From: Fibrobacterota bacterium
GTDB lineage: Bacteria > Fibrobacterota > OXYB2-FULL-49-7 > JAEUSG01
Length of the DNA stretch: 55,259 nt
NCBI GenBank assembly: GCA_016788315.1
Contig: JAEUSG010000116.1
Coordinates: forward strand, 1-55,259
Reading direction: 5' to 3'
The notes beneath the pieces were generated by a model. The model made no database searches. It was not told the origin of the DNA and saw only the letters and a list, made by a program, of their open reading frames with translations. Each line of letters begins with the position of its first letter. Position 1 is the first letter of the stretch. Shown here piece after piece: positions 3,455 through 55,259 of this stretch. The translations under genes and the position numbers were made by a program.

Positions 3455-3463
3455 GGAGCATAT

Positions 3464-3895: not shown

Positions 3896-3896
3896 A

Positions 3897-7067: not shown

Positions 7068-7127
7068 CGATCCCCCTTAGTACAATGACATGCACTAAGA
7101 ATAGATTAATACAGGTCAAACGTCAAA

Positions 7128-8177
7128 TCAGAGTGCGCAGAAAGCGTTTACTTTCTCCCTGATTGTCTTTTCATAGCCAGGCATGCTCAGCACATCACAC
7201 TCACTGCCTAGAATGAAAGGATGACCTGTGGCAGTCATTTTTTCAATAATCTCTTTCGCCAGTTTCACAACTGCATCTAGGGAAATTTCTACGTCTGAAT
7301 AAAATTTCTTTGTCGGCATGTTTCCGTACATGACTATATCTTTGTCAACAAACGGCTCCATTTCCCAAAGCTTTACCGGACTTCCGAAAGAGAAGACATC
7401 CGGGCGTAATGCAGCAAGCTTCTGAGCCATGACTGGCCGGAGATCTCCGCAATCATGAAGAATAAGAGAAACACCATGTTTATCAAGGAGCTCCTTAACC
7501 TTTCTGTTTGGCTCAATTACATACCTGTCAAAAACATCACTGCCTTCGTCCATCTGTTTTGGGGAGAAATAGACAAGATTTGCAGCCGGTTCACAAAGGA
7601 AGATAGCCTTTGCTCCACCTGCAATTTTAATCTTCAGCGATTTCAATACAGTATTTGTAGCGATCTCCGAAATCTTTTCTACAAGAGCAACTTCTGGTGC
7701 ATCTTCTTTGGTGAGTCCATTTCCAGCGAGATATATCGGAATAATAGGGTCTGACATCATCTTGGTAAGAAGAGAGAATGGGCCTATACTCATATCTACA
7801 GGCAGAAGATCTGTCTTTGTTGCAATATAATTCAGAGAGATGAGATTAGCTTTTGTGCGCGGATGTGACTTGAAATCATGAGCTTCGATCTTTTGCCAAA
7901 CAGAATCATCAGGAAGCTCATCAAAATGAAAAGTATTCCTATTTTCAGGCGCAACACCAAGAGCATCAAGAATGGTCTCTTTTTCAATTACGAGATCCAT
8001 GATTGGAATTGCAAAGGGCAATCCGAACCTTCTGGCAGTTTCCTCTGTTACCTTACCAAGGAGGTCACCATTAAGGAGTATTTCATCATGGTTGGGTTTT
8101 TCGTGTAGAACTAAATGTGCAGCAACTGGAGCCCTTTTGCCTGTTTTGGCAAATTCGGTGAAAAACTTACGGCTCAT
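7128..8177 (-). CDS. uroporphyrinogen decarboxylase (URO-D) superfamily protein, MtaA/CmuA-like methyltransferase rather than HemE
   Basis: 349 aa of TIM-barrel URO-D-like length. A H-x-C...C zinc-type pattern (ILHDCGD, LGSECDV) resembles methylcobamide methyltransferases. It lacks the HemE N-terminal MRQAGRY-type motif. Confidence 0.55.
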   Translation of the reverse strand: MSRKFFTEFAKTGKRAPVAAHLVLHEKPNHDEILLNGDLLGKVTEETARRFGLPFAIPIMDLVIEKETILDALGVAPENRNTFHFDELPDDSVWQKIEAHDFKSHPRTKANLISLNYIATKTDLLPVDMSIGPFSLLTKMMSDPIIPIYLAGNGLTKEDAPEVALVEKISEIATNTVLKSLKIKIAGGAKAIFLCEPAANLVYFSPKQMDEGSDVFDRYVIEPNRKVKELLDKHGVSLILHDCGDLRPVMAQKLAALRPDVFSFGSPVKLWEMEPFVDKDIVMYGNMPTKKFYSDVEISLDAVVKLAKEIIEKMTATGHPFILGSECDVLSMPGYEKTIREKVNAFCAL

Positions 8178-13854: not shown

Positions 13855-13891
13855 AATGTGACCGGCATTGCCAGCAAAGGACACATTAATA

Positions 13892-36913: not shown

Positions 36914-39900
36914 ATGCGGATTCTGTCAGCGTTGCTGGTTTTGATTTTTTCTGCAACAGCTTTACACGCTGCACTTAAAATTCCACTCACCGTGAAAGAT
37001 GGCGCTTCCGCCGGAAATATTACCCAGTATCCGGTTAAGGTTGGTGTCCCCCTGCCGATGGGAACCTATGATAACACCGCGAACTTCCGGGTCGTGGATG
37101 CTTCGGGCAACACGGTTCCAGCCCAGTTTGATGTTCTTGCCCGCTGGTGGCCGCGCAACACATCCATCCGTTTTGTTCTCGTTCAGTTTCTTACAGATGT
37201 CAACAGCGGTTCACGCAGCCGCTACTTTTTACAGGATGATGGTTCCGGCAACGCTGCAACAGGTGTACAGATAAGTGAAGATGCCGCCCGCTACTCGGTC
37301 AATGCTGGTAAAGTCCAGTTTGAAGTAAAAAAGAACAGCTTCAATATTATTGACCGGCTATGGTATGATGTCAACAACAACGGAACTTTCGAAACTGCTG
37401 AAGAGATGCTCAAATCGGGCCAGGGAAATGGTGCGGCACTTACTGATACATTAGGGAATGTGACCTGTGATACAGCTAAAACCGGTCTCAAGTTCACAAT
37501 GGAGGAATCGGGGCCGGTTCGCATGGTTCTCAAAGTGGAAAGTCCGACCGATACAGCACAGAACGGCTGGGGTTTCATTGTGCGTATACAGGCCTATTAC
37601 AATCAGCCGTTTGTGGTACTCGATTATTATCTGAAGAATTCAGCTTATGGTGCTACCGGTCACCATCTCAGTTACTCAAAATTTGCACTGGTGAACAATC
37701 TCTCCTCCCTGGGGAGTGCGACGGTTCGTGCGGGCGGCGCTCTCGCGGATAATGCCGGTGCCTACGAAGCTGCTCTGGGCAGTTCCGCAGTTACAGATGT
37801 GGCCACAGCATGGTCAACCTATACAGTCAACGGAAGCGTCAAGAGCGGTATTGCTGCAGGATATGTTGACCTTTCTGACAATGTTAAGGGAATGATGGCT
37901 GTTGTCCGGAAATTCTCTTATCTCTGGCCCACGGGTCTTGAAGTAACCGCAGACAAAAAGATTAATGTCAATCTCTGGCCGCAGGGTTCGCACCGGATGC
38001 TTGATGAAACGCGACGTTCCCATCAGGTGCTCCTCTATTTCCATCCGGGAAGTGCAACACAGGCAGACCTGTTCAAACAGGCGAAAATTTTCCAGCAGTA
38101 TCCGGTACCGGTGCTCCAGCCCACCTGGTACGCGCAGACTCATGCCTTCAGTGACTGGGGCGGGGTCGGGTTTCCTTCAGACACCACCTGGAATGAAGCG
38201 CTCTATAATCCGCCGACATCATATGCAGGTACGGGAAACAGCCTGGCAACGGGCTGGTGGAACTGGGGCGGTTCACCAGGACGGCGCAACAGCTCCGGCG
38301 GCGGCGGCTGGCCCGGATACCTTGATGATTATGTGTCGTGCGGCAGTCCGGCCTATTTTTATCACGCCGATGATGTGGCCCGTCACACAGCAGAAATGAG
38401 GCCCATGTGGATGGATAATTTCCAGTACGGCACCGATAACCGGCTGGTCAAGATAGAATATCCGCCGGCATGCGGTCTACGCGCTCCTAATGCCGGTCTC
38501 GATTCTACAACCTGGACATCATGGGATTATGAACACATCTGGATTTATGAAATCCTTCAGTACTATTTCATGTCAGGAGAACGGTTCTGTCAGGATTATC
38601 TGAAGATGCAGGCTGATTTTACTATGCTATCAAATTGGGATCTCTCCATTGCCGATACTATGAAGCCGCCCTATTACCATGATTTTACCAGAAGCCACGG
38701 ACAATCCATCCGAACTGCAGTGGATGCCTACAAGGCCACAGGCGAAGAGCGGTATCTTAAAATTATCAAGGCGTATGCGCAGTACTTTGTAGATAATGCA
38801 AAATCACCATATGGAATATTCTGTCTGAAACCTTTCATGTCCTCTTTTATTTCGTCAAGCGGATTTGATATTTACTTCCTGCTGCCGGAGAATACCTCTG
38901 AAGAGCGTATCCTTAAAGAGCGGTTTCTGCGGGTGCTTCAGAGCGCAGGTAATGGTGCTGTTTATTGGGGCGGCAACAATACAGCCAGCTGTCCCAAAGC
39001 ATGGGGACAGGCCTATCAATACCGTGCAGACTCGGTCTATGTAAGGCCAACACCATCCGGTATCGAAGGTGAGTTCTACTATGTCTCATATTATATGAAC
39101 CATCTGGGACTCTCCTATTTCCTCTTCGGCGATACAGTTTATCGCAGTCTTATCGGGCGCAGTAATCCGAATGGAGCCGTCCTAAATCCGCCACAGAGTT
39201 TCATGGCGGCACCTGTCGGTTCTGCACCGGCAAACTACTATAGGGGAGCGAGTGCCGCCTGGTATAATCCGGAACAGAAAAAATCGGTGATGCCTCCCCG
39301 CATAACTACGCTCAAAGCTGTCTCAAGCCATGACCGCGTTGTTGCGCTGCAATGGACATCCGTGGGCGGCGATGCGTACAAACTCTGCTGGTCGAACAAG
39401 CCTATTGTCAACAAGCTTGGACGGGTGGCGCCGCTTGACAGCGGGGATATCTATTTACCATATCCCGATACGGTCAAGGCCTTCACAAATATTTATCGGG
39501 CCATACCTCTTGATATTACCGGCAAGCCGAAGACCAGCGGGCAGACAGAGCTGTTTACAACCGCAACATTGCCGGATTCTCTGATTGGGAAAAAGGTTTA
39601 TTTCATTCTGCAGGCAGTGAATATCGCTTCTGATGTCGACCAGTGCCGCGGTGCCATCTCCAATCTTGACAGCATTGTTCTTGATAGTGCAAAGGGAACT
39701 TTCGGTCCGGCGGACTCTACAGTGTTTCCGAGAACGGTACGCAGTGTTTACACCATGAACAGCGGTGAACTCATGGTAGTTCTTAACAATCCGGTTACCG
39801 GCGGCAGTGCGCTTACCTGGGGTGTCGCTCTTGCACACGCTGCAAAGGGTACTCAACTCACAATCAGTTCTGTGGAACTGGATACGAACTGCAAAACCCT

Positions 39901-40780
39901 CCTCCGCATCAGAACCAGCGGTATGGTCGAAGGGCAGTATTATCGTCTGATGCTTGACAGCGCACAGACTCCATGGACCTTTGTTGCCAATTTCAGACCC
40001 AACATATTTTCGACCCGTAAAATCCATTTCGGCAACAACTATCATGGCAACGGCTGGGAAGTGGGTCACAGGTGGGATGGCGACATCGGCTATAACATGG
40101 TTGCCTGGGATGCTGTGAGCTGGTACGATTGGGATCCGGCTACGATTACAGATTCTTCCACACGCGGCTGTATCGGACTGGGATACAGCGCACCTTACGG
40201 CACGGAATGGCTCAAAGTCGTGGTCAGCCGTGAAGTACGGGATTATCTGTTCAGCGCATATGTGCGGGCCGATTCTCCCCGTAAGCTGCAGGTCGAAGAT
40301 ACCATGATGTGGAACAGCCGGCCTTCGGCTGGAGGAGTGGTTCGAACGGACAGTATTCCCCTTTTGGTGAAAGATGGCTGTGTTGACATGGTCTGGCAGC
40401 ATCTGACCAATATTCAGGTAATTCCGGTGTTCAAGTACTTCAAGAGCGTCAACTTCAAACCGATTGCTGTGGAAAAGAGTTCTAATGAAGGGGCAGATAA
40501 TTCATTTATTGTAAACTACCCCAATCCCTTTAATCCGGAAACACGGATAAGTTTTGCACTAGGCCGCGGGATCTCGCTAGCTCAGGCGCACCTCGTTATT
40601 TATGATGTGTCCGGCCGGATAGTTCAGCAGTTCACACCTGCTGTCCGCAGTGGACAGGTATGCACAGTGCTCTGGAATGGCCATTCTCAGAATGGAAAAT
40701 CCGTTGCCAACGGCATTTACTATGCACGCCTGAATGCAGGTTCCAAAGTGCTGATTCGGAAACTGGTTTTTATGAAATAG
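36914..40780 (+). CDS. very large secreted protein, PcRGLX(PL26)-like N-terminal domain, T9SS sorting domain (paralog B, high-GC)
   Basis: Signal peptide MRILSALLVLIFSATALHA. The N-domain LKIPLTVKDG...PVKVGVPLPMG...FRVVDASGNTVPAQFDVLARWWPRNTSIRFVLVQF is colinear with 27436..30483. The C-terminus reads NYPNPFNPETRISF...GIYYARLNAGSKVLIRKLVFMK. GC content is clearly higher than in neighbouring genes. Confidence 0.45.
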   Translation: MRILSALLVLIFSATALHAALKIPLTVKDGASAGNITQYPVKVGVPLPMGTYDNTANFRVVDASGNTVPAQFDVLARWWPRNTSIRFVLVQFLTDVNSGSRSRYFLQDDGSGNAATGVQISEDAARYSVNAGKVQFEVKKNSFNIIDRLWYDVNNNGTFETAEEMLKSGQGNGAALTDTLGNVTCDTAKTGLKFTMEESGPVRMVLKVESPTDTAQNGWGFIVRIQAYYNQPFVVLDYYLKNSAYGATGHHLSYSKFALVNNLSSLGSATVRAGGALADNAGAYEAALGSSAVTDVATAWSTYTVNGSVKSGIAAGYVDLSDNVKGMMAVVRKFSYLWPTGLEVTADKKINVNLWPQGSHRMLDETRRSHQVLLYFHPGSATQADLFKQAKIFQQYPVPVLQPTWYAQTHAFSDWGGVGFPSDTTWNEALYNPPTSYAGTGNSLATGWWNWGGSPGRRNSSGGGGWPGYLDDYVSCGSPAYFYHADDVARHTAEMRPMWMDNFQYGTDNRLVKIEYPPACGLRAPNAGLDSTTWTSWDYEHIWIYEILQYYFMSGERFCQDYLKMQADFTMLSNWDLSIADTMKPPYYHDFTRSHGQSIRTAVDAYKATGEERYLKIIKAYAQYFVDNAKSPYGIFCLKPFMSSFISSSGFDIYFLLPENTSEERILKERFLRVLQSAGNGAVYWGGNNTASCPKAWGQAYQYRADSVYVRPTPSGIEGEFYYVSYYMNHLGLSYFLFGDTVYRSLIGRSNPNGAVLNPPQSFMAAPVGSAPANYYRGASAAWYNPEQKKSVMPPRITTLKAVSSHDRVVALQWTSVGGDAYKLCWSNKPIVNKLGRVAPLDSGDIYLPYPDTVKAFTNIYRAIPLDITGKPKTSGQTELFTTATLPDSLIGKKVYFILQAVNIASDVDQCRGAISNLDSIVLDSAKGTFGPADSTVFPRTVRSVYTMNSGELMVVLNNPVTGGSALTWGVALAHAAKGTQLTISSVELDTNCKTLLRIRTSGMVEGQYYRLMLDSAQTPWTFVANFRPNIFSTRKIHFGNNYHGNGWEVGHRWDGDIGYNMVAWDAVSWYDWDPATITDSSTRGCIGLGYSAPYGTEWLKVVVSREVRDYLFSAYVRADSPRKLQVEDTMMWNSRPSAGGVVRTDSIPLLVKDGCVDMVWQHLTNIQVIPVFKYFKSVNFKPIAVEKSSNEGADNSFIVNYPNPFNPETRISFALGRGISLAQAHLVIYDVSGRIVQQFTPAVRSGQVCTVLWNGHSQNGKSVANGIYYARLNAGSKVLIRKLVFMK

Positions 40781-43935: not shown

Positions 43936-43981
43936 TGTACAGAAACTTGAAAAATGAGATAATTAACTATATTTGGTGGAT

Positions 43982-45244
43982 ATGCACAATTATATGCGCC
44001 CTGTTTTGGGATACTTACTATTCTTTTCGGTTTTGTCTATTTTTGCAACAACATCACCAGAAAAGCCGCAACCTCTGGCTGTAAATGCAGTTTCAGTACC
44101 TGTCACAATAAATGGTTTTTTAAATGAATGGGGTGACTTTAAAAGGACCTATGAACGGGTGTACCTGGAGGATCCCTATATCACCAGAGCAGCATCGGAC
44201 CGAAATAAGGTGTGGTGTCGGCTTTTATGGGATCGTCACTACCTTTACATAGCATTCAAGGTTGAGGATTCACGACTTTTGGCCCGTACTCTGAATAATG
44301 ACGACTACATATTGAACGACGATGGAATTGAACTGTTCATCGACAAAAAAGATGATACATCTGCGACATGGAGTCCTGATGTCTATCACATCTTACTCGG
44401 TCTGAATAATAATCTGATGCAAAAACAGGGAATCGTTCCAGTTCCAGGTAATGGTAAGATCCAGCAAACAGTTATACATAATATTGACATAAAAAGTTTT
44501 GTCCGTGTGTCTGGCACTGTAAACAATAACAACGATATCGATTCAGGTTATCAGGCCGAAATAGCCATTGCATGGAAGAGTCTTGGTGTCAATTCTTGTA
44601 ACGGTTTTTCATTCCGTTTTAATTTTGCAATTAATGAATGGGACTCTTTATACATAGATACAACCGGTTCAGACAAGTTCACTGTTTATTACCACTATGC
44701 AGGCAATTGGGTGGAACCTCATGCCAACGTTCCTGCAAACTGGCAATCATTCATTCTTGAAGGAGGAGCTACTGTTTCGAAAGATGACAGTGGTTCCTCG
44801 AAAGCAAGTTTCGGCAAACTGCTTATTCCAGCTCTTTTCCTTTTGGCTCTGATTATTATATCCTCCATTTACTTTTTTGTATTACGTCGCCGTTCACAGG
44901 CCATAAGCAGTAAGCTGCGTAGTGAAATCGAATTTAAACTTAAGTCATATATCGACGAAAACTTCCGGAAAAAAGTATTACTTGAGGATTTTTGCAATCA
45001 GTATAATCTAGGTTTGCGCCAAGTCCAGCGCTGGCTGAAAAATGACCTCAACACAACATTTAATGAAATGTTGACAAAAAAGAAAATGAGCGAAGCCAAA
45101 CAGCAGCTTGAAATGACAGACAAGACCGTCTCAGAGATCTGTTTCGACCTCGGCTATAACGATACAAGCTACTTTACAAAGGTCTTCAGAGGCGCTTACG
45201 GTATAGCACCAACCGACATACGAAAAGCTGCAAGAAAGGGATAG
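43982..45244 (+). CDS. membrane-tethered AraC-family regulator: CBM9/DOMON-like ectodomain - single TM - cytoplasmic AraC HTH
   Basis: ORF begins at TTG 43973; ATG 43982 is preferred. N-terminal signal or anchor VLGYLLFFSVLSIFA. Ectodomain INGFLNEWGDF...VWCRLLWDRHYLYIAFKVEDS...DDGIELFIDKKDD is CBM9-like. TM helix LLIPALFLLALIIISSIYFFVL is followed by RRRSQ. C-terminal HTH reads VSEICFDLGYNDTSYFTKVFRGAYGIAPTDIRK. Confidence 0.7.
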   Translation: MHNYMRPVLGYLLFFSVLSIFATTSPEKPQPLAVNAVSVPVTINGFLNEWGDFKRTYERVYLEDPYITRAASDRNKVWCRLLWDRHYLYIAFKVEDSRLLARTLNNDDYILNDDGIELFIDKKDDTSATWSPDVYHILLGLNNNLMQKQGIVPVPGNGKIQQTVIHNIDIKSFVRVSGTVNNNNDIDSGYQAEIAIAWKSLGVNSCNGFSFRFNFAINEWDSLYIDTTGSDKFTVYYHYAGNWVEPHANVPANWQSFILEGGATVSKDDSGSSKASFGKLLIPALFLLALIIISSIYFFVLRRRSQAISSKLRSEIEFKLKSYIDENFRKKVLLEDFCNQYNLGLRQVQRWLKNDLNTTFNEMLTKKKMSEAKQQLEMTDKTVSEICFDLGYNDTSYFTKVFRGAYGIAPTDIRKAARKG

Positions 45245-45253
45245 CTTACGAAT

Positions 45254-45271
45254 ATAGCTGGTAGCAGCTAT
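45254..45271. terminator. small hairpin ATAGCTG-GTAG-CAGCTAT between convergent genes
   Basis: 7-bp perfect stem with a 4-nt loop, read directly. It overlaps the stop codon of the minus-strand ORF. Confidence 0.3.
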
Positions 45272-46050
45272 CTAACCATCGTAAGCTTCTTTACAATACT
45301 CTTTCCTGAGTATTCTGCCTTTACGAAATATACTCCTGTTGATGATGTTTTCCCTTTTGTATCCTTTCCACTCCAGACAATGCCTTTTGCAGCTGCGCCA
45401 ACAGTTGTATTTTCTGTGTACACCACTCTACCATCCGATGATATTACCGAAAGTCTGATTGCTTTTTGCGGATCTGTACCATAGGCAGCTCCAGTAAATT
45501 TGATAGTTACCATCGGATTGAATGGATTCGGCGCTGCTGTCAACGAAGAGCCGTTTATATATTCGCCGTCTAATACAGGATCTTCTGTGGACTCAGTATA
45601 TGTCCAGTCGATAATCGGATTTTTCCTGTAGTTACTCTTATTGTTAAGATAGAATAGATAGGGCTGAAAGACCGTCATATCATATTTTCCGCCGAAGCCG
45701 TGATCCCATTGTCTGAAAATTCCATTCTTTCCATCCATTGCGAAAGTGTTCATCTTTCTTTCAAACACTGTGTCGCCCGTGAAATAGAACAGTCGCGCAA
45801 GTTCTCCCGGTATTCTGAAATTGCTGGCCGTTGTTGTTGATGGTGAGGTAGTGTCGGCATATCCCCAGCCGTGATAAAGAATATTGCATTTAGGACTGAA
45901 AACAGAATCCTTGAAACATGTAACCCTTCTTGTAAAGTAATTGTTCAAGCTGTCATTCCAGAAGTTTTCAGAATACTCAATCCAGATATTTGCTGATGCT
46001 GACTCAATTGGAACGGCTGACAGTATCGTTTGCGGCGATGCATTTATCAT
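45268..46050 (-). CDS. leaderless ORF carrying a T9SS sorting domain (probably a 5'-truncated cargo gene)
   Basis: 260 aa. The C-terminus reads AAPNPFNPMVTIKF...GVYFVKAEYSGKSIVKKLTMVR. The N-terminus MINASPQTILSAVPIES is not a signal peptide. The first 110 nt overlap the opposite-strand ORF 45941..48262. Confidence 0.45.
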   Translation of the reverse strand: MINASPQTILSAVPIESASANIWIEYSENFWNDSLNNYFTRRVTCFKDSVFSPKCNILYHGWGYADTTSPSTTTASNFRIPGELARLFYFTGDTVFERKMNTFAMDGKNGIFRQWDHGFGGKYDMTVFQPYLFYLNNKSNYRKNPIIDWTYTESTEDPVLDGEYINGSSLTAAPNPFNPMVTIKFTGAAYGTDPQKAIRLSVISSDGRVVYTENTTVGAAAKGIVWSGKDTKGKTSSTGVYFVKAEYSGKSIVKKLTMVR

Positions 46051-48262
46051 AAGCGGACAGTCAAATTCAATTACGGTTCGTCCCTATCCTGAGTTATCCG
46101 ATTCTGTAAATGAGTGGATACGCTCATATGGCAATGCGCCTGGAGTCAGCTGGAATGGATGGGGTTTGGCACAGGGACACAACATGTCAACTGGGGCTAA
46201 ACAGGGGCCCTCTATCGGCGCATGGGGTTGGTACATGGCAAATGGTCTGGTCTGGAAATACAAAGTTCCCGTTTGCATTATAAATGGAGGTTCCGGCGGA
46301 ACAGAAATAAAATCCCACTTAAGAAACAGCAACAACCCATTTGATTCATATTCCTTATATTCTAACCACCTCTCCCGCACTACCAATTCAGGGCTAAGAG
46401 GCGGAATCAAAGCAGTAATATGGCATCAGGGCGAATCCGATTCAGACGTTTCACGATACCCGCTCTATGCAGCACGCCTCGATTCGCTCTACCATTCATG
46501 GAAAATGGATTACCCTGCTCTAAAACATATTTACATCTTCCAAATCCGGCCTGGTTGCGGTGGCCTTCGTGGTGCTGAAATACGTGAAATTCAGCGCACC
46601 TTCCCGGGGAGCCGGACCGATATTCATGTAATGTCAACTAATGGTCTGACAGGCCACAGCTACCAGAATGATTTCTGCCACTACGAAGGTACGGGATATC
46701 GCCAGATGGCATCCTGGATTCGTGCATTGCTTGAGCGGGATTTCTATGGTTCTGCGGATACTTTAGCTATTGAACCGCCTGACGTGGTTTCCGCTTACCA
46801 CACATCGCTGCTCAGGAACCAGATTGCAGTGGAATTTACACAACCTGTCAACTGGAATGGAGCCTTAACAACCAGAAACTGGTTTCATTCCATAAAAAGC
46901 GCTTTTCAGGTTGACAGCAGTTCCGCCAATGTCAAATCTGTTTCATGGGACAGTGTAAACAGCCGGATATTGGTTAACTTGACTAAATCACTTTCTGCAA
47001 CTCGCATCTCCTATCTTCCGGAGCTGTACTATCCTGATACAAACATCACTTACGAAGGGCCCTGGCTTGTAAATTCACGTGGCGTCGGTGCGCTGGCTTT
47101 CCTCCAATTTCCAGTAACCCTTCCTGATTCGGTTCGTGATACCACACAGATTTTTGCCGATACAGCTACACCCGATTCGTTAAGTCTCACTGCCTCTTCA
47201 TTGCTGTTGCTGCCTGGAGATTCTATCCGTCCAGATGTAGTTGGATACTTCAATGGACTCCGCCGACCTGTAATAACTGGACTTTCTTGGATTTCAAAAT
47301 CAGTTGGCACAGTAACTGTTTCGTCTGAAGGTTTACTTAAAGGTGTGACTGAAGGTGGACCTGTTGCAGTAATTGTTGGCAAAAAAGGGGTTTATGATAC
47401 TGTAAACGTAACAGTAAAAAGCAGACCGTCAATTCTCAAACGCATTAATTTTGAAGACCAAAACCAGCCGGTACTTCCGGATTGGATTACAGAGAATTGG
47501 GGACGCTATTCAGCATCTCGTGGCTTTGGATGGGACTCCTTTCCAGGCGCAGGACACGCTTATCACGGCGCAACTATAGGCCCCTGGGTTGTTCGTACCT
47601 ATGTAGCTCTCGGAACAGGAAACTATGGTAACGAAAAGAATGCCTGGGCCCGCTACCGGATTCAGGTACCTGCTGGTGATTATGTTCTGCGCATAGGAAT
47701 GGGAACGCAATTATGGATGGGCATAGGCGGACGCACCCGCGATATTGCTGTGCACAATGGAGACACTCTGGTGAATAAAGATTTTGGATATTGTTCTGTT
47801 CACACAATGCGGATTACTGTAAATGGTGACAGCGGTCTTAAACTCAATATTTTTGGTGCAATCAACTACATTGTACTAATCTCAGGAGAATTTGAGCAAT
47901 ATGTCAACTTATTTGCAAATGACAGCACAGGCGGAGAAACTCCTCCTTCTTTACCATATACAACTGGTGAAATTGATGGCGCGTCTGATGAATTCGGATT
48001 TAAGGGCAATTCACCAAACCCATTCAATCCCTCAACATCTATCCGGTTTAATTTACCAACTCATGTAAATTCTGTTTACACTATCTGTGATGTTCAGGGC
48101 AGAGAAATATTCAGAACCGCGGTCTCTCATGCTGGTGCACACGTTATCTTCTGGAATGGAAACGATATGAAAGGACAAAGGGTAGCATCAGGATTATATG
48201 TAGGACGCTTACAAACAAGTAATGGGTATAAAAAAGAGCACCGTCTAATTATGCTGAAATAG
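45941..48262 (+). CDS. SASA (sialate O-acetylesterase-like, SGNH-type) carbohydrate esterase with Big_2-like and lectin-like modules and T9SS sorting domain; leaderless
   Basis: TTG start immediately after an in-frame TAA. FIISGQSNS, GGSGGTEI and AVIWHQGESD are SASA/DUF303 motifs. Big_2-like VSSEGLLKGVTEGGPVAVIVGKKGVYDTVNVTV. The C-terminus reads NSPNPFNPSTSIRF...GLYVGRLQTSNGYKKEHRLIMLK. No signal peptide. Confidence 0.6.
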   Translation: MFKLSFQKFSEYSIQIFADADSIGTADSIVCGDAFIISGQSNSITVRPYPELSDSVNEWIRSYGNAPGVSWNGWGLAQGHNMSTGAKQGPSIGAWGWYMANGLVWKYKVPVCIINGGSGGTEIKSHLRNSNNPFDSYSLYSNHLSRTTNSGLRGGIKAVIWHQGESDSDVSRYPLYAARLDSLYHSWKMDYPALKHIYIFQIRPGCGGLRGAEIREIQRTFPGSRTDIHVMSTNGLTGHSYQNDFCHYEGTGYRQMASWIRALLERDFYGSADTLAIEPPDVVSAYHTSLLRNQIAVEFTQPVNWNGALTTRNWFHSIKSAFQVDSSSANVKSVSWDSVNSRILVNLTKSLSATRISYLPELYYPDTNITYEGPWLVNSRGVGALAFLQFPVTLPDSVRDTTQIFADTATPDSLSLTASSLLLLPGDSIRPDVVGYFNGLRRPVITGLSWISKSVGTVTVSSEGLLKGVTEGGPVAVIVGKKGVYDTVNVTVKSRPSILKRINFEDQNQPVLPDWITENWGRYSASRGFGWDSFPGAGHAYHGATIGPWVVRTYVALGTGNYGNEKNAWARYRIQVPAGDYVLRIGMGTQLWMGIGGRTRDIAVHNGDTLVNKDFGYCSVHTMRITVNGDSGLKLNIFGAINYIVLISGEFEQYVNLFANDSTGGETPPSLPYTTGEIDGASDEFGFKGNSPNPFNPSTSIRFNLPTHVNSVYTICDVQGREIFRTAVSHAGAHVIFWNGNDMKGQRVASGLYVGRLQTSNGYKKEHRLIMLK

Positions 48263-48293
48263 CTGTTTCAAGGTTTAACGAAACAGCTTTTTA
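48261..48293 (+). terminator. Rho-independent terminator
   Basis: AGCTGTTTC (48261-48269), a 10-nt loop, then GAAACAGCT (48280-48288) followed by TTTT. It begins at the last base of the stop codon of the esterase gene. Confidence 0.7.
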
Positions 48294-48438
48294 TATGTCA
48301 TTTTATTACATAATAAATCATAATAAATACTCTGTGTCGATACATAAATGCCTAATAACAAAGAAAATAACAGGCTATTAATTGGTACAGTTTTTGCGCA
48401 ATAAACCAAAATTGCATACATAATGATTCATTAAAGGA

Positions 48439-51351
48439 GTGATTTTGAAGTTGAAATACTTAGCACTTTTAGCATTTTACCTTTTGACAGATTGTTCCAA
48501 TCCGGTCTCGAAAGAAAAAGAAGCGATTCCACCAGCCCCACCAGAAACTCCGAACCAATTTTCGGGACATACCGGTATAAAGGAAAACACACTCACCTGG
48601 TCTAACAGCACTGATTCTCTTTCTTACAATCTTTACTGGTCCACTGAGGATTCTGTCTCAATAGAAACTGCGAAAAAAGTGAGTGGTGTGACCTCCCCTT
48701 TCAAACACACTGCTTTGGATTTTCGTTCCACATACGCTTATGTACTCACTGCTGTTAATCAAATTGGCGAATCACAGCCAACAACCATAGTTAGATTGAA
48801 ACCTCTCATTCCCCCGCCTGTCAATCCAAAAACCACTCCCGGGAAATCGCAAATCACACTGACCTGGAATCCAGTTGCAGGTGCCTCAGGGTACCGGGTT
48901 TACTGGTCTAACATACCGGGAGTCACTCCAACAACGGGTTCTCGAATTTCGAGTACTACATCTGCATTGGTCCATACCTCTCTGGACTATCGACTGACCT
49001 ACTATTACATCATCACCACATTAGACAGCACACGCGAATCAGCCCCCTCCACAGAAATTATTGGACAGACCGTCCTACCTCAGCCTCAAGGGTTCACCGC
49101 TACCCCTGGTGTGGGTCAAATTACCCTCCAATGCGACACATTGCCCGGTGCAACACAGTACAACATCTACTGGTCAAATACACAAGGCGTTACCCCGATA
49201 ACCGGAAAGAAAATGACTTCATCCCTGCCAAACATCATCCATTCATCACTCAACTACTTACTCACCTACTACTATATCATCACTGCAGCTGATAGTGGTC
49301 GGGAGTCCGAGCCTCTCCCTGAAATTAGCCTCCACCCAGATTTGCCGGCCCCACGATTGGGAGGGAGTATTTCGGAACCGGGCAAAATTACCTTGCGATG
49401 GGATTCTATTCCAGGAGCAACGGCCTATAACATCTATTGGTCCACCAGCAAAGGTGTTACGCAGGCTACAGGTAATAAACTCACCAGCAAAATACCCACT
49501 CTCACCCATACCGGACTCGATTACAGAGCAACTTATTATTACATTGTCACATTCAGTACAGATAACCGTGAATCTCCACCGTCGTCTGAAACCGTTGCAC
49601 GGACCGCGCTTCCAACTCCGACAGGTGTCAAAGCCTCGTCAGGACTTGGTACCATTACTTTACAATGCGACTCACTTCCGGGCATTACCCAATACAACAT
49701 TTATTGGTCGAATTCACCTGGCGTAACGAAGGCAAATGGTAAAGTAATAAGCAGCACAGAACCCAAAATTACCCTGAGTAAACTCAACTACACCCTGACT
49801 TATTATTACATCATCACAACCCTGGAAGGGGGCCGGGAGTCCGTCCCCTGTGCAGAGATTAATGCTCGCCCTGAAATGCCTTCTCCTACAGGGGGAAAAG
49901 CCCTTCCAGGAACGGGAACAAACACCCTGCAGTGGGACGCTGTCAGCGGAGTCACGCACTATAACATCTACTGGTCTACAACCCCCGGCGTAACTAAGCA
50001 AACAGGCACCAAGCTGACATGCACAGGAACTCAATTCATACACACTGGGCTGAATTATCAACTAACCTATTATTACATCATTACAGCAGCAGACATTAAT
50101 CGTGAATCCGCTCCCAGTAATGAATTCCATTCAACACCAACCATCAGCAGTCCGGAAAACATAAGGCTCTCAGCAGTTGATAATCGGGCAATTTTGACTT
50201 GGAAAAACGTACCAGGTGCTGAGCAATACGACATATACCGGACCGCAGCCAATTCCACACCATTCATACGAATTCAAAATGTCAACAGCCCATGTACATT
50301 GACAAGTCTGGATACTGGACTTTATTCCTTTCAGGTTAGAGCACTCCGTTCGTTTGATGCATCTGTCCCAGACACCACACTGAGCTGCCGTATAAATGGC
50401 TTCATATTTGAACTGGAGGGAGACCACTATGTGGTTAAAGGGCACAATGGAACAGACACCATTCTCTCCATTCCCAATAAATATGCAGGAAAACCTGTAA
50501 CAACCATTGGAGAGCAAGCATTCTCTAATAAGATGCAATATAAACGTCTTTACATTCCTGAAGGCATCACGACAATAAGGATGATGGCTTTTTACTCCTG
50601 CTCTTTATTAACGGGTCCACTTATTCTCCCCTCAACAGTGAGTGCAATAGGGCCATTAGCCTTTACAGATTGCAACCATCTGGACAGCTCTCTTGTGCTC
50701 CCTGCTTCTCTCACTGAAATTCCTCAAAGCGCCTTTTTACGATGCACCCGTCTGAAAGGCCCGCTCGTGCTGCCGCCGTCGCTGGTAACGATTGGCAGTG
50801 GAGCCTTTGCAAACGATAGCCTTTTGCAGGGAAATATTCAATTTCCATCAACGCTCCGTTCCATAGGAGCCAATGCTTTTGGAAACTGTAAGAGCTTGAC
50901 GGGGTCACTACTTTTCCCGGATAGCCTAAAGAGCATTGGGGGTTGGGCGTTCTATGAGTGCAGCGGACTTACCGGGTCATTGGTTTTACCTCATGGATTA
51001 AGTGTAATTAATCAATACACCTTTACTGGATGCAGAAACATGACCGGAGGATTCGCAGTACCTGAAGGTGTTACCTTTATCGACATATCTGCATTCGTTC
51101 AAATGAACCAGATTACCGGGCCTATTATTTTTCCTGCAAGTTTGAAGCAAATGGGTGCCTGTGTGATTTATAATGAGAAGAGCTTGCAATCAGTGATTTT
51201 CAGAAACCCTGTACCCATTGCAGATATAACGAGTTGCCTCTTCAGTTCGTGTCCTTCAATGAAAACCATAAAAGTTCCGGCCTCCGCCTTGGATGCATAT
51301 AAAACCGCACCGATCTGGAAAAATTGGGCCCACCTCATGATTGCTGAATAA
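48439..51351 (+). CDS. lipoprotein with seven FN3-like repeats fused to BspA-type leucine-rich repeats
   Basis: The ORF starts at GTG 48439, but AAAGGAG abuts it, so TTG 48445 or 48451 is the more likely start. Lipobox-like LLTDC. Seven repeats carry ...Y.(I/V)YWS...GVT...TYYYII(T)...RES.P. The C-terminal half is LRR_5-like (AF..C..L.G.L.LP.S...IG..AF). Confidence 0.7.
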   Translation: MILKLKYLALLAFYLLTDCSNPVSKEKEAIPPAPPETPNQFSGHTGIKENTLTWSNSTDSLSYNLYWSTEDSVSIETAKKVSGVTSPFKHTALDFRSTYAYVLTAVNQIGESQPTTIVRLKPLIPPPVNPKTTPGKSQITLTWNPVAGASGYRVYWSNIPGVTPTTGSRISSTTSALVHTSLDYRLTYYYIITTLDSTRESAPSTEIIGQTVLPQPQGFTATPGVGQITLQCDTLPGATQYNIYWSNTQGVTPITGKKMTSSLPNIIHSSLNYLLTYYYIITAADSGRESEPLPEISLHPDLPAPRLGGSISEPGKITLRWDSIPGATAYNIYWSTSKGVTQATGNKLTSKIPTLTHTGLDYRATYYYIVTFSTDNRESPPSSETVARTALPTPTGVKASSGLGTITLQCDSLPGITQYNIYWSNSPGVTKANGKVISSTEPKITLSKLNYTLTYYYIITTLEGGRESVPCAEINARPEMPSPTGGKALPGTGTNTLQWDAVSGVTHYNIYWSTTPGVTKQTGTKLTCTGTQFIHTGLNYQLTYYYIITAADINRESAPSNEFHSTPTISSPENIRLSAVDNRAILTWKNVPGAEQYDIYRTAANSTPFIRIQNVNSPCTLTSLDTGLYSFQVRALRSFDASVPDTTLSCRINGFIFELEGDHYVVKGHNGTDTILSIPNKYAGKPVTTIGEQAFSNKMQYKRLYIPEGITTIRMMAFYSCSLLTGPLILPSTVSAIGPLAFTDCNHLDSSLVLPASLTEIPQSAFLRCTRLKGPLVLPPSLVTIGSGAFANDSLLQGNIQFPSTLRSIGANAFGNCKSLTGSLLFPDSLKSIGGWAFYECSGLTGSLVLPHGLSVINQYTFTGCRNMTGGFAVPEGVTFIDISAFVQMNQITGPIIFPASLKQMGACVIYNEKSLQSVIFRNPVPIADITSCLFSSCPSMKTIKVPASALDAYKTAPIWKNWAHLMIAE
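48556..50358 (+). repeat. in-frame tandem array, 7 units of exactly 89 codons (267 bp)
   Basis: The conserved Tyr of the (I/V/L)YW(S) motif falls at residues 66, 155, 244, 333, 422, 511 and 600 (IYR in the last unit), a constant 89-aa step. Units 3+4 resemble units 5+6 more than they resemble each other (TLQCD..LPG.TQYNIYWSN / YNIYWST..GVT..TG.KLT...HTGL.Y). Confidence 0.8.
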
Positions 51352-51392
51352 TAAGTTGACATATAAACAATTAATCTTAAAGGAACAGATTT

Positions 51393-52310
51393 ATGGAATC
51401 TCTTAAAGAATTTTTAAATCAACACCAATGGTCCGATACAACCGTTGAAACAGAAGAGGGCGATATTTCCGCCGTCTTTTTCGATTGGAAGAAACTGCCA
51501 GCTGAAGACAAGGCTGACCTCTTTGAATATTTCACCAACGAAGATACTCAGAAAAAAATTGAAAAGGGCGAATGGCTTCCAATTGCTGTGCTTGACATGT
51601 ATTATGGCATGGACAGCTTTGCAGAGATGAATAACAAAGGTATTCTTGTAGTTGTCCAAAAGGACAGCGAATACAAACCTGGTACGGTTCTATGGTTTTG
51701 CCAAGATAACGATGAGCCCGTTCAGGAGTTAGCGGAATCGTTAGATGCCTTAAAAGTAAAGAACTTAAAAGAAGAAAAAGAAGAAAAGGTTACAGCCAAT
51801 GATAGTCCCGACTCTCATTTGGAACCGCCCTACAAGGAACTCTGGGACAGTTCTATTGAAAAAAGCATAAAAAAAGATCTCGATGGTGCTATCGCTGACC
51901 TCAAGATTATTATGAAGGAACTTCCAGGAAACATTGCAGTTCTCAAAGCTCTCGCACAAGTCAGCGAAATGAAAAGCGAGTTTGATACCGCTTTGGAATA
52001 TGTGAATAAAGCGCTGAGCTTTAAACCCAATGACTTCTCTTTACTAAAAACAAAAGGGGAGATTTTAATCAGCTTAAAACATTATGATGGGGCTATAGAA
52101 CTTTCACAAGCGATGGAAAAAATAGCGCGTGACGACGACGACGATTCAGACCTCGGAAAAGCGTTAGCGCTTCGTGGTATTGCACTTGTGAAAACTGGGA
52201 AAACAAAGGAAGCGAAGCCATTAATCGAGGAGGCTGAAGAAAAAGGCTCCTTTCTTTCCATGACTTTTTCTGATTACGACTGGGCAAAAGAGGAAGTTGA
52301 AAAAGTTTAA
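51393..52310 (+). CDS. cytoplasmic protein, N-terminal SUKH(SMI1/KNR4)-like region (weak) plus C-terminal TPR repeats
   Basis: 305 aa with no signal peptide and an acidic linker (KEEKEEK). TPR-like ALKALAQVSEMKSEFDTALEYVNKALSFKPNDFSLLKTKGEILISLKHYDGAIEL. The N-terminal assignment is speculative. Confidence 0.4.
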   Translation: MESLKEFLNQHQWSDTTVETEEGDISAVFFDWKKLPAEDKADLFEYFTNEDTQKKIEKGEWLPIAVLDMYYGMDSFAEMNNKGILVVVQKDSEYKPGTVLWFCQDNDEPVQELAESLDALKVKNLKEEKEEKVTANDSPDSHLEPPYKELWDSSIEKSIKKDLDGAIADLKIIMKELPGNIAVLKALAQVSEMKSEFDTALEYVNKALSFKPNDFSLLKTKGEILISLKHYDGAIELSQAMEKIARDDDDDSDLGKALALRGIALVKTGKTKEAKPLIEEAEEKGSFLSMTFSDYDWAKEEVEKV

Positions 52311-53564
52311 ATGAGTAAATCGACAGAAGCTGCAATTAATTTTTTAATGAAGGGTGAATGGGATCTTTGCCTGGCTGAGATTTCCAATCAACGGTCGGGA
52401 GAAGGAGATTGTTGGGAGTATTGGTGGATAGAAGCACGCATTCTTCGTTTACGCGATAACAATCCAGTCACCGCTTTTGAGAAAATCGATTACAGTCTGA
52501 GTGTTTTTGGTTACAATTTTTATTTACTTGATTCGGGACTCTCCTATTTGAACCTTTCTGGTAAGTACGCGGAAGTGGTGGTATTCTGGAGAAAATATCG
52601 GGAACATTGGTTGTGCAACCAAACAAACCCGACCCAGATTGCAGTGCATCTTTTACACGCCTACTCCCTGCTTAAGCGTCCCTTTGATGGACTTGAAGAA
52701 ATAAAAAGCATGGGGCTTCTTGTTAGTGTAGCAAATGATTGGTCAATCTCAGCTACGAATGATGCTTATTATTTTAATGTCAGCTGTCTTTATGCACAGA
52801 TTGGCGATGTACGGCAGATGCTTGAATATGCGCAGGCTGCACTGGCAATAAAAGATAAGATGGTTCAGTATCTTACAGATGAAAGCTTCGCATCTATGCG
52901 CACCAAAACCATTTTTGCTGACTTTATTGAATATAACAATAACAAATTTAACACCTATTTATGTCTGCAAAAAAACAATCATCGGGTTGAAGTTTTCACT
53001 CGTGCCAACAGCTTTTATTCACTGATGGTAGTTGAATGTACCGATGGTGTGTATCAGCTTAAGAAGTGGGAACGGACCGAATCAGCTGTGACGGAAGACA
53101 ATCAATTTTCTTCTCATGCAGACCTTTTGATGTATCGTAATGCATTCGTTGAAAATCTTCTATCACAGGGTTATGCTTCCGCTGATTACCCTTATGCCGC
53201 TGAATGGATTACAACGCTTAGGGATGTTTTTATTGGTTGTGCATCTTCCCGTGGCATTTCAGAGAATATGAAACCGGTCTTTACGCTTGAATGGGATTAT
53301 GTTTATGAAGATTTAAAGCCGGAAGTTCACCCGTTAACAAGAAGCTATTATTTTTACGGTGATTTTGGTGAAGACGACCATATCGGATTTCTACCTATAA
53401 TCCCTACTCTGGATTGGTTTAAGGAAATTATTCTGAAGAGCATCGAGGGCGTAACGCTAATTTTAGAAAATGCCCGGTTGGAATGCGCACACTCTGAACA
53501 TGATTCGGGGGATGAATTTTCTTTTCTTTATCCCAATGATGATCAGAAAGAAATCGTAGCATGA
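52311..53564 (+). CDS. cytoplasmic hypothetical protein, helical-repeat N-half, weak WGR-like segment
   Basis: 417 aa. The ATG directly abuts the upstream TAA. The segment NSFYSLMVVECTDGVYQLKKWERTESAVTEDNQFSSHADLLMYRNAFVENLLSQGY loosely fits the FY...W(G)R...F.S...A...F......GY WGR pattern. Confidence 0.35.
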   Translation: MSKSTEAAINFLMKGEWDLCLAEISNQRSGEGDCWEYWWIEARILRLRDNNPVTAFEKIDYSLSVFGYNFYLLDSGLSYLNLSGKYAEVVVFWRKYREHWLCNQTNPTQIAVHLLHAYSLLKRPFDGLEEIKSMGLLVSVANDWSISATNDAYYFNVSCLYAQIGDVRQMLEYAQAALAIKDKMVQYLTDESFASMRTKTIFADFIEYNNNKFNTYLCLQKNNHRVEVFTRANSFYSLMVVECTDGVYQLKKWERTESAVTEDNQFSSHADLLMYRNAFVENLLSQGYASADYPYAAEWITTLRDVFIGCASSRGISENMKPVFTLEWDYVYEDLKPEVHPLTRSYYFYGDFGEDDHIGFLPIIPTLDWFKEIILKSIEGVTLILENARLECAHSEHDSGDEFSFLYPNDDQKEIVA

Positions 53565-54142
53565 AGTTCTTTATTCTTGACTGTAATGAACCGCTTTCGG
53601 TCAACAGCGAGGCGATGATGGAAATTCATAACACCTTTCGTGTTGGAGGCATACGACTGTGGTCGTCTGGCAAGGGTCACGACAAACCGGTGCCGACACC
53701 CATTGAAATCCCTTTCGATACTTTTCGAGAATACTCTGGTGCACCGATTGAGTTTTTAGATGTTGGAATTCCGATTATGTCACTTAGGATGGCTAATGCG
53801 TTACTTGATGCGGGTGTAAATAATATTGAATTTTACGATGCCTCTCTTGTTAATAAGCAAAGTGGAAAAACTTTCCATTATAAGGCTTTTAATATTATTG
53901 GTTTGGTTTCAGCGGCAGACCTTAAGCGATCGGCATGGCATAGTTTAGATGGGGATGTACAGCACACGGTTTCTTTTGAACGATTGATACTTGACGAATC
54001 ATTATCCGAAAGGCTCGATATATTTCGTCTTGCTGAAAATGTAAAGGCGATAATTGTGAGTGAACGAATTAAACATATTCTTTTATCAAAAGGCATTAAT
54101 ACGCTGAAATTTATATCGCCTGAACAATGGACGATGGTTTAA
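53561..54142 (+). CDS. Imm11/DUF1629-like predicted immunity protein (paralog 1)
   Basis: 193 aa with an ATGA overlap upstream. YKAFNIIGLVSAADLKRS and the C-terminal IFRLAENVKAIIVSERIKHILLSKGINTLKFISPEQW match my recollection of the Imm11 family architecture. Confidence 0.55.
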   Translation: MKFFILDCNEPLSVNSEAMMEIHNTFRVGGIRLWSSGKGHDKPVPTPIEIPFDTFREYSGAPIEFLDVGIPIMSLRMANALLDAGVNNIEFYDASLVNKQSGKTFHYKAFNIIGLVSAADLKRSAWHSLDGDVQHTVSFERLILDESLSERLDIFRLAENVKAIIVSERIKHILLSKGINTLKFISPEQWTMV

Positions 54143-54172
54143 ATAGACAGCATCCTTAAAGTTGGAGATGAT

Positions 54173-54751
54173 TTGATAAAGACTAAGTATTATATGCTGG
54201 AATGCATCGCACCGGAAGCGTGGGACGATGTTGCGTTAGTTGAGGGCATTGCACCTCCGGTCGGAGAAATTTCATGGCGATTGGGGAGTCGTTTTATCAA
54301 TCCACCCCGAGAGCCGGTAGTGGTGAATCTGCATCCGGAATACGGTGTTCAGATTAAAGAACTGCGCAATGTTGATGCGCTGTTGATGACCCGCCGTTTG
54401 CATGAAGCATTTGTCGAGGCAGGAGTTTCCAATCTTGACACTTATTCAGCAATTATACGCCATCCGTCCAGAAATTTTGAAACCTCTGATTATGTTGTCT
54501 GTAATCTTGTCGGCATTGTTGCCACAGCAAATCTTAAAAATCTTTTCGTAAACGGGTCTTCCACGCACGGAATAAATGATATTGACATCAACCCCATTGT
54601 CATTGATGATGAGAGTGTAGGCGAACTCTTGATGTTTCGCCTGAAAGAAAACAGCAGTGCCGTTGTTGTGCATGAATCCGTTAAAGCGGCACTTCTTTCA
54701 AAGGGGTTTAGCATGTTAACATTTGTTTCACCCGAAGAGTGGCTTGGGTAA
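54173..54751 (+). CDS. Imm11/DUF1629-like predicted immunity protein (paralog 2)
   Basis: 192 aa, colinear with paralog 1 (YVVCNLVGIVATANLKN; MFRLKENSSAVVVHESVKAALLSKGFSMLTFVSPEEW). Confidence 0.55.
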   Translation: MIKTKYYMLECIAPEAWDDVALVEGIAPPVGEISWRLGSRFINPPREPVVVNLHPEYGVQIKELRNVDALLMTRRLHEAFVEAGVSNLDTYSAIIRHPSRNFETSDYVVCNLVGIVATANLKNLFVNGSSTHGINDIDINPIVIDDESVGELLMFRLKENSSAVVVHESVKAALLSKGFSMLTFVSPEEWLG

Positions 54752-54754
54752 AGT

Positions 54755-55259
54755 ATGCAACCATGTACTATTAATTCAACAAACTACTTCGTCATGGTGT
54801 GCGAGGGAAAACACCCCATTACGCCAATCCGTGTTTGCCCACACATCTCCGGCTGGATGCTGGGGCGTGTCGTCGAACCGCCAGCAAAACTGCCGCTGCA
54901 TTACGAGTTGAACTCAAGACACCCGGGCAACCCGAAGGCAATGTACGACGAAAAATCGGTGCCGATCATGCACGACTCGGTTCGTGCCGTGCTGGAATGG
55001 GTTGGCGTTTCCAATATACAGTATTTCGATGCGGTGCTCAGCAACCCGCTCAGCGGGGAGATTCGACACGACTACAAAGCATTCAATATTGTTGGATTGG
55101 TCGCTTGCGCAGACATTACCGCGTCGCAGACGATGGGCATCTCGTCGTCAAGGGTGGGCGATACAGATTTCCACGGCCTCGTGATCGACGAAACCAAAAC
55201 TGACGGTACGCTGTTGTTCCGCCTCGCCGAAAACATCAGCGCGATCGTTGTGCATAAGA
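54755..55259 (+). CDS. Imm11/DUF1629-like predicted immunity protein (paralog 3, partial, high-GC)
   Basis: Not in the ORF track because it has no stop inside the window. My translation from ATG 54755 reads MQPCTINSTNYFVMVCEGKHPITPIRVCPHISGWMLGRVVEPPAKLPLHYELNSRHPGNPKAMYDEKSVPIMHDSVRAVLEWVGVSNIQYFDAVLSNPLSGEIRHDYKAFNIVGLVACADITASQTMGISSSRVGDTDFHGLVIDETKTDGTLLFRLAENISAIVVHK... It shares YKAFNI(I/V)GLV..AD and LFRLAEN..AIVV with paralog 1. Confidence 0.55.
   Translation, partial: MQPCTINSTNYFVMVCEGKHPITPIRVCPHISGWMLGRVVEPPAKLPLHYELNSRHPGNPKAMYDEKSVPIMHDSVRAVLEWVGVSNIQYFDAVLSNPLSGEIRHDYKAFNIVGLVACADITASQTMGISSSRVGDTDFHGLVIDETKTDGTLLFRLAENISAIVVHK

Follow-up and report, generated by a model that had tools for sequence, protein, structure and literature searches.

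What are five small genes with the look of an immunity operon doing at the end of a contig on which no toxin gene is seen? The question is raised by contig JAEUSG010000116.1 of a Fibrobacterota bacterium (assembly GCA_016788315.1), of which we analyzed the whole stretch of 55,259 nucleotides (nt), referred to here as the window. Five consecutive open reading frames (ORF1 to ORF5) occupy the plus strand from position 51393 to the contig end, and the last three are paralogs, namely, ORF3 (53561 to 54142; 193 amino acids [aa]), ORF4 (54173 to 54751; 192 aa; TTG start codon, preceded at a distance of 5 nt by GGAG), and ORF5 (54755 to beyond 55259; at least 168 aa; C terminus cut by the contig end). 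We consider it likely that three divergent Imm11 genes, acquired stepwise, make up a homogeneous polyimmunity array without a toxin at the 3' end of the window; ORF2, located just before them, may also be linked to immunity.

The family assignment of the three paralogs is supported by several comparisons. ORF3 scored 33.1 bits against the Imm11 model of Pfam (PF07791, formerly DUF1629; 194 positions), covering model positions 42 to 190 and exceeding the gathering threshold of 22.1 bits. ORF4 scored 21.9 bits (model positions 45 to 189), while ORF5, a protein cut short by the contig end, gave no match to PF07791. BLASTP linked ORF4 to ORF3 (E = 2e-24; 33% identity) and ORF5 to both ORF3 (E = 8e-23) and ORF4 (E = 5e-18), with pairwise identities of 28 to 33% among the three proteins. 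In an alignment of 20 sequences (i.e., the three ORFs and 17 relatives), the motifs N(I/L)(I/V)G(L/I)V and FRL.EN..A form invariant or near-invariant columns, and a profile of this alignment matched the Imm11 structure 6A4C_A (MXAN_0049) at an E value of 2e-15, with 187 of its 215 residues covered. An initial annotation, made from the sequence alone, had grouped the three ORFs by their shared motifs and had linked them to the Imm11/DUF1629 family; the paralogy is confirmed by BLASTP and the family alignment, and the assignment proved correct on the basis of the ORF3 score and the match to 6A4C.

In Myxococcus xanthus, MXAN_0049 binds and neutralizes the AHH nuclease MXAN_0050; the two proteins belong to the Imm11 (PF07791) and AHH/EndoVII (PF14412) families, respectively (PMC12077181). 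In strain DK1622, the immunity gene is always located 3' of the toxin gene and is at times accompanied by one or two extra imm11 genes (PMC12077181). Imm11 has also been reported in pairs with Tox-AHH, Tox-HNH, and Tox-SHH (Zhang et al. 2012, PMC3482391). The window proteins resemble MXAN_0049 in their size (about 190 aa) and in the absence of a signal peptide, and ORF3 is predicted to be a cytoplasmic inhibitor of an AHH-family DNase toxin. Since the mutual identity of the three copies is only 28 to 33%, while cross-protection has been recorded at 46% identity (commentary, PMC12077181), they probably cover different toxins.

The closest relatives of the three genes are found in distant organisms and are linked to toxins. 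ORF3 is 62% identical to an Imm11 gene of Niveibacterium and 54% identical to a gene from a JGI metagenome, each located directly 3' of an AHH nuclease gene; no other record of ORF3 was found. The best match of ORF4 is an AHH-linked Imm11 gene of a Gemmatimonadota metagenome-assembled genome (MAG), with 43% identity along the entire protein. ORF5 exhibits 78% protein identity to an Imm11 gene located 3' of an AHH toxin gene in a Uliginosibacterium (Betaproteobacteria) MAG (L066), and the similarity extends to the DNA level (80.5% identity over 476 nt; L066 positions 6923 to 7398). This DNA similarity starts at position 54782, some 27 nt into ORF5, and does not include any part of the donor-type toxin gene. 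The G+C content of ORF5 is 53%, and that of its third codon positions (GC3) is 66%, compared with a mean GC3 of 40% (standard deviation, 5) for the window. When a plasmid collection was searched, ORF2 had no match and ORF5 had weak matches only. Since each paralog is closer to a toxin-linked foreign gene than to the other copies in the window, the best explanation is that each descends from a different AHH/Imm11 pair and was acquired without its toxin. ORF5 itself looks like a recent cross-phylum acquisition, again without the toxin, from a high-G+C betaproteobacterium-like donor.

We searched the window for the missing toxins with an AHH profile that was seeded with the toxins beside the ORF3 relatives and iterated to 54 sequences. 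Neither the initial nor the iterated profile matched any window ORF of at least 60 aa. Pfam searches of 26 window proteins (three genes at 43973 to 48262 being left out) found no nuclease, deaminase, Rhs, or PAAR toxin domain, in agreement with the initial annotation, which had reported no toxin module in the window. For comparison, 77 Imm11 loci from species-representative genomes were scanned with the AHH profile. An AHH toxin was present in 51 of them and absent from 26; among the single-Imm11 loci, 44 had the toxin and 18 did not, while among the loci with two or more Imm11 genes the counts were 7 and 8. Where present, the toxin gene was mostly located immediately 5' of Imm11 on the same strand. 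In the window, the three genes have ORF2, ORF3, and ORF4 as their 5' neighbors, none of which is an AHH toxin, and no copy occupies the position downstream of an AHH toxin gene. This gene order, 3' of a toxin, defines cognate pairs and not the Imm11 family itself, of which orphan copies are on record (PMC3482391). Toxin-less arrays were also found elsewhere (L083 from Hahella, with three copies; L060, L081, L090, L112, L119, and L123), the largest in the survey being that of Spirochaetes bacterium SZUA-423 (L110; 941 to 9091), with eight Imm11 ORFs in about 8 kb. Because the nearest relatives are toxin linked, the window has no AHH gene, and ORF5 bears a signature of transfer, there is good sequence-level support for regarding them as orphan immunity genes gained by horizontal transfer; their orphan state had been proposed from the start, and the AHH-linked relatives in distant phyla, the non-toxin genes in the upstream slots, and the composition of ORF5 bear it out.

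Other features of Imm11 loci were noted in passing. In a Spirochaetota MAG (A2.bin.24), Imm11 genes are spread over three or more contigs (L011, L094, and L123 among them). In a Logan assembly (SRR26835472; L003, 3216 to 10579), three Imm11 genes stand beside a gene for a 1,657-aa N6-methyltransferase/SNF2-helicase and one for an Endonuc-like_C protein, which looks like a case of immunity genes inside an apparent defense island. In the window, ORF3, ORF4, and ORF5 share one reading frame without extra stops between them, and ORF1 and ORF2 share another; same-frame Imm11 runs separated by single stops also occur in L110 (941 to 2704) and L061 (6566 to 8353). Such runs could result from in-register duplication or from fission/fusion of polyimmunity proteins.

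The initial annotation had suggested an orphan immunity island in a lineage bearing a type IX secretion system (T9SS). The orphan state is upheld, and the lineage does carry T9SS cargo, as shown by the Por_Secre_tail and FlgD_ig C-terminal domains found in window proteins. The island part is not: the marks of the mobile acquired interbacterial defense (AID) type (i.e., a recombinase or mobile-element context, a tRNA gene, and an intergenic repeat) are absent from the window, the downstream side lies beyond the contig, and the genes flanking the array are metabolic and T9SS-cargo genes. Among the other window genes, a GH94 phosphorylase gene (13868 to 16162) is most similar (60 to 63% identity) to genes from PVC-group MAGs of the Victivallales, Kiritimatiellae, and Planctomycetota. 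A comparison with 185,579 species representatives revealed no close relative of an RNase-J-like protein. Unlike the GH94 relatives, the numerous T9SS C-terminal domains suggest the FCB group. The lineage of the window is poorly sampled. A gene at 36914 to 40780 encodes a 1,288-aa protein with a T9SS-type C-terminal domain; the surrounding stretch has a G+C content of about 51%, compared with 43% for the window, and may be another foreign segment.

The array is preceded by ORF1 (51393 to 52310; 305 aa), with an N-terminal domain (about residues 1 to 135) followed by tetratricopeptide repeats (TPR; about residues 150 to 290), and by ORF2 (52311 to 53564; 417 aa), both on the plus strand. Upstream of these lies a plus-strand gene (48439 to 51351) for a surface lipoprotein with fibronectin type III (FN3) repeats and BspA-type leucine-rich repeats (LRR) (Pfam LRR_5, 164.9 bits; fn3, 52.9 bits). 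From this gene through ORF5, the successive gaps are 41, 0, -4, 30, and 3 nt. ORF2 starts directly after the TAA codon of ORF1 in the same frame, and its stop codon overlaps the start codon of ORF3 (ATGA). No terminator-like site was seen on the plus strand between the LRR gene and ORF1 (51351 to 51393), and no hydrophobic signal-peptide segment was seen at the N terminus of any of the five ORFs. The ORF map thus agrees in full with the initial description of five leaderless same-strand ORFs that follow the FN3/LRR gene with these gaps and no terminator. The same annotation had suggested that the LRR lipoprotein might be an unrecognized effector, and we found nothing in favor of this suggestion. 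The lipoprotein gene is outside the immunity function and forms upstream context only, although it may be cotranscribed with ORF1 onward. A 19-nt AT-rich inverted repeat (89% complementary; 48290 to 48308 and 51349 to 51367) flanks this gene, with one arm 5' of its start and the other overlapping its stop; the repeat may be due to chance or may be a regulatory or insertion signature.

ORF1 has a clear TPR region (Pfam TPR_2 and TPR_19 at 33.1 bits, as well as TPR_14, all above their cutoffs). With the domains separated, it had no SUKH or WGR match in Pfam at E values of up to 10, and its sole relative among 5.8 billion clustered proteins was a TPR-only match. As whole proteins, ORF1 and ORF2 gave no match to a SUKH-clan model of Pfam at E values of up to 1. 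Comparison of ORF1 with the ORF2 family by hhalign likewise revealed a TPR likeness only, leaving the N-terminal region of about 135 aa unmatched. None of the five ORFs matched the anti-phage defense models of PADLOC. The possibility that ORF1 and ORF2 are one gene split by a stop codon is not supported: their shared frame follows from the 0-nt gap, a free-standing 383-aa ORF2-like protein exists (P0031), and the N-terminal regions of the longer ORF2 relatives are not homologous to ORF1 in our comparisons.

A word-indexed protein search with ORF2 returned only ORF2 itself. When 1.84 billion representatives were searched in full with HMMER, about 10 full-length relatives with 18 to 28% identity were found. 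Most of these are 640 to 790 aa in length and carry ankyrin repeats, then TPR, and then the ORF2-like module; two are named only "ankyrin repeat domain-containing protein" in RefSeq, and ORF2 itself has no ankyrin repeats. A metagenome scan for more loci of this family yielded one locus only. The AlphaFold2 models of ORF2 (pLDDT, 81 and 80.5) suggest three parts. Residues 1 to 210 are modeled as a TPR-like solenoid, for which Foldseek returned TPR and MamA structures; against the NCBIfam model TPR_END_plus, ORF2 scored 30.5 bits, under the 32-bit cutoff. Residues 215 to 285 are modeled as a WGR-like four-stranded sheet with a helix. The model of the C-terminal half matched the N-terminal part of 2RA8, which we take to be a WGR domain, over 81 columns (Foldseek; root mean square deviation, 2.1; E = 0.03), and also a phage "WGR domain containing protein" (probability, 0.97; template modeling score, 0.75 relative to the target). 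The WGR model of Pfam (PF05406) had no match in ORF2 or in any of the 9 family members at E values of up to 10, and the C-terminal halves of all 9 members had no Pfam match.

The third part, a C-terminal alpha/beta domain (residues 296 to 407), contains the invariant residues E327, W328, R344, Y346, and P365 and ends in the invariant motif EHD.G.EF (residues 396 to 403; E396-H397-D398-x-G400-x-E402-F403), also referred to here as the SEHDxGxEF module. This domain had no match in PDB, BFVD, Pfam, NCBIfam, or PADLOC, the Foldseek matches reaching the WGR-like part only. Its alpha-beta-beta-beta-alpha-beta-beta order recalls restriction-endonuclease-like folds; no such match was returned, and we claim no such relationship. 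As a candidate AHH/HNH toxin, ORF2 was rejected: BLASTP against the L004 toxin and searches with the AHH profiles gave nothing, and the protein ends about 10 residues past the conserved hairpin, leaving no space for a beta-beta-alpha metal finger. ORF2 is best described as a member of a rare, unnamed family with an uncharacterized terminal domain. The initial annotation had read ORF1 and ORF2 as immunity-protein-like combinations of repeats with weak SUKH-like and WGR-like segments. The repeats are confirmed, in ORF2 at the structural level, SUKH has no match at E values of up to 10, and WGR has no match at the Pfam level, with a resemblance at the fold level only; the label "immunity-protein-like" is an inference for both proteins and not a family assignment.

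The genomic neighborhoods of the ORF2 family were compared at nine distinct loci (the window, L007, L008, L009, L010 [identical to L013], L011, L012, L014, and L015), and an Imm11 gene is the immediate neighbor of the ORF2-family gene in four independent ones. It lies downstream with a 4-nt overlap in the window; upstream in the same direction, at a distance of 78 nt and with two further copies nearby, in the Spirochaetota locus L011; and divergent in L007 and in L008, the latter with two further copies about 7 kb away. The adjacent Imm11 genes fall in different Imm11 lineages, and the adjacency therefore arose more than once. Given the rarity of Imm11, chance is very unlikely to explain adjacency in four of nine loci, as judged from the raw count. 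Two further observations concern these loci. The ORF2-family gene adjoins a gene for a BspA-like LRR surface protein both in the window (LRR_5) and in Cellulophaga baltica (L012, 7275 to 8573; DUF285), a proximity that, with two cases, may be a coincidence. In L011, three ORFs without Pfam matches (223 to 1902, 2699 to 3484, and 3543 to 4256; 559, 261, and 237 aa) precede a broken and an intact Imm11 gene and could be unrecognized toxins or further immunity genes.

These data bear on several ways of reading the locus. The Imm11 genes might be cognate, their own AHH toxins being encoded past the contig end or elsewhere in the genome, and might protect self and kin as in Myxococcus kin discrimination. 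The contig does stop within ORF5, the cognate gene is followed by one or two additional imm11 copies at some M. xanthus toxin loci (PMC12077181), and 7 of the 15 multicopy loci that we surveyed contain an AHH toxin. However, the toxin is 5' of the first Imm11 gene in toxin-linked loci, a side on which ORF2, ORF3, and ORF4 are found here; the three genes belong to three different foreign lineages, and 55 kb of sequence contain no AHH toxin. We regard a cognate arrangement as rather unlikely. A still different role for ORF2 would be that of a new toxin or enzyme with a catalytic C-terminal domain, with ORF3 as its immunity protein or antitoxin, coupled by the 4-nt overlap. With its ATGA overlap, ORF2 occupies the very position expected of a toxin gene, invariant polar residues (E327, R344, Y346, EHD at 396 to 398, and E402) are found at its extreme C terminus, the modeled WGR-like fold before the C-terminal domain would suit nucleic acid binding, and the family recurs beside Imm11. 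This role is difficult to reconcile with the variable orientation of the pair (i.e., divergent in L007 and L008 and with Imm11 upstream in L011) and with the five of nine members that have no Imm11 gene within 10 kb, a situation that would be intolerable for a lethal toxin. Furthermore, ORF2 has no secretion or trafficking domain, the family is conserved over the whole protein rather than having a polymorphic C terminus, the C-terminal domain matches no nuclease fold, Pfam model, or PADLOC model, and the closest ORF3 relatives pair with AHH toxins, not with ORF2-like proteins. We thus consider a toxic ORF2 to be quite improbable. Five genomes would not be expected to tolerate a lone toxin, and a divergent arrangement is unusual for toxin-immunity pairs. 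The pattern of the family, whose members are sporadic, solitary or next to immunity genes, rich in repeats, and cytoplasmic, fits an immunity-type or toxin-binding protein better.

Doubtful, in our opinion, yet worth weighing is the view that ORF1 and ORF2 are unrelated scaffold proteins packed here by chance and that the three Imm11 genes alone form the functional unit. The relatives of ORF1 are limited to a TPR match, five of the nine ORF2-family loci have housekeeping-type neighbors, and no surveyed Imm11 locus carries the family. On the other hand, the direct adjacency of a rare family such as Imm11 in four of nine independent loci, with Imm11 genes of different lineages, and the 0-nt and -4-nt junctions in the window, which favor coexpression, argue for a connection. 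We tentatively suggest, as one possibility, that the ORF2 family is an undescribed partner of Imm11, acting either as a repeat-based immunity factor against AHH or other effectors or as an Imm11-controlled enzyme; the window would then hold a mixed immunity operon of an uncatalogued type.

Several points weigh against our preferred reading of an orphan polyimmunity array with an immunity-linked ORF2. Binding and neutralization of a nuclease toxin by the window proteins are predictions, the score of ORF4 is 0.2 bits under the Pfam cutoff, and ORF1 and ORF2 are without any family assignment. The AHH profile would miss HNH, SHH, or novel toxins, and because the contig stops within ORF5, a toxin gene may be located 3' of it or elsewhere in the genome. 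Given its distance of 500 nt to the contig end and its foreign composition, the ORF5 junction could conceivably be the product of a chimeric assembly. In addition, five of the nine ORF2-family genes are solitary among unrelated neighbors, with no Imm11 within 10 kb, and an ORF2-family gene was found in 0 of the 77 surveyed Imm11 loci.

On the preferred reading, the Imm11 proteins (about 190 aa) would act in the cytoplasm, where they would bind and block incoming AHH DNase effectors (HNH/EndoVII fold) from neighboring bacteria, as extrapolated from their homology to MXAN_0049/MXAN_0050. With three specificities, resistance would extend to a broader set of toxins. The array would have grown stepwise by horizontal transfer, with ORF5 as a recent addition from a high-G+C betaproteobacterium-like source. 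ORF1 and ORF2 would be cytoplasmic repeat proteins whose genes have the same orientation as the array and lie close against it, and on the simplest reading ORF2 may be a further repeat-based immunity or toxin-binding component.

The locus, from an uncultivated bacterium, may be seen as a sequence-level case of "immunity hoarding" outside gut Bacteroidales and myxobacteria. It supports the view of orphan immunity arrays as a general, horizontally traded defense in environmental communities and introduces no new principle. With the AID and rAID-1 clusters of gut Bacteroidales (Ross et al., bioRxiv 10.1101/471110), it shares an orphan array, foreign toxin-paired relatives, and stepwise acquisition; it differs from them in consisting of Imm11 genes, predicted to act against AHH toxins, rather than of immunity genes against the type VI secretion systems of Bacteroidales, and its protective effect is a prediction. 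With the AHH-Imm11 pairs (MXAN_0050/MXAN_0049; PF14412/PF07791; PDB 6A4C), it shares the immunity family, protein size, leaderless state, and AHH-linked nearest relatives. The differences are that no AHH toxin precedes any copy in the window, where neutralization is predicted by homology, and that the host is a T9SS-cargo-bearing lineage and not a myxobacterium.

The closest precedent is found in the homogeneous polyimmunity loci, of which Imm11 is among the families forming prominent examples in many phyla (Zhang, de Souza, Anantharaman, Iyer, Aravind 2012, PMC3482391). The window is alike in having three consecutive same-strand Imm11 paralogs, with gaps of 30 and 3 nt, and no linked toxin; its array is small (three copies in view, cut at the contig end), and the two preceding repeat proteins are outside the 2012 catalogue. 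The array is an already-known kind of locus, since Imm11 polyimmunity loci have been on record since 2012 and public genomes contain toxin-less arrays with as many as 8 copies. The sole new lead is the association of Imm11 with the ORF2 family. This family, which is rare, unnamed, well modeled, and located beside Imm11 in four independent loci, is a candidate new immunity-associated component. Its nearest counterparts are Imm-ank, listed as one immunity type of AHH toxins (PMC3482391), and the TPR/ankyrin-fused immunity proteins (Zhang et al. 2012). ORF2 differs from these in having no ankyrin repeats and in carrying the WGR-like part and SEHDxGxEF module, which lie outside the Pfam, NCBIfam, and PADLOC models, while its longer relatives carry ankyrin repeats together with TPR, as those immunity proteins do.

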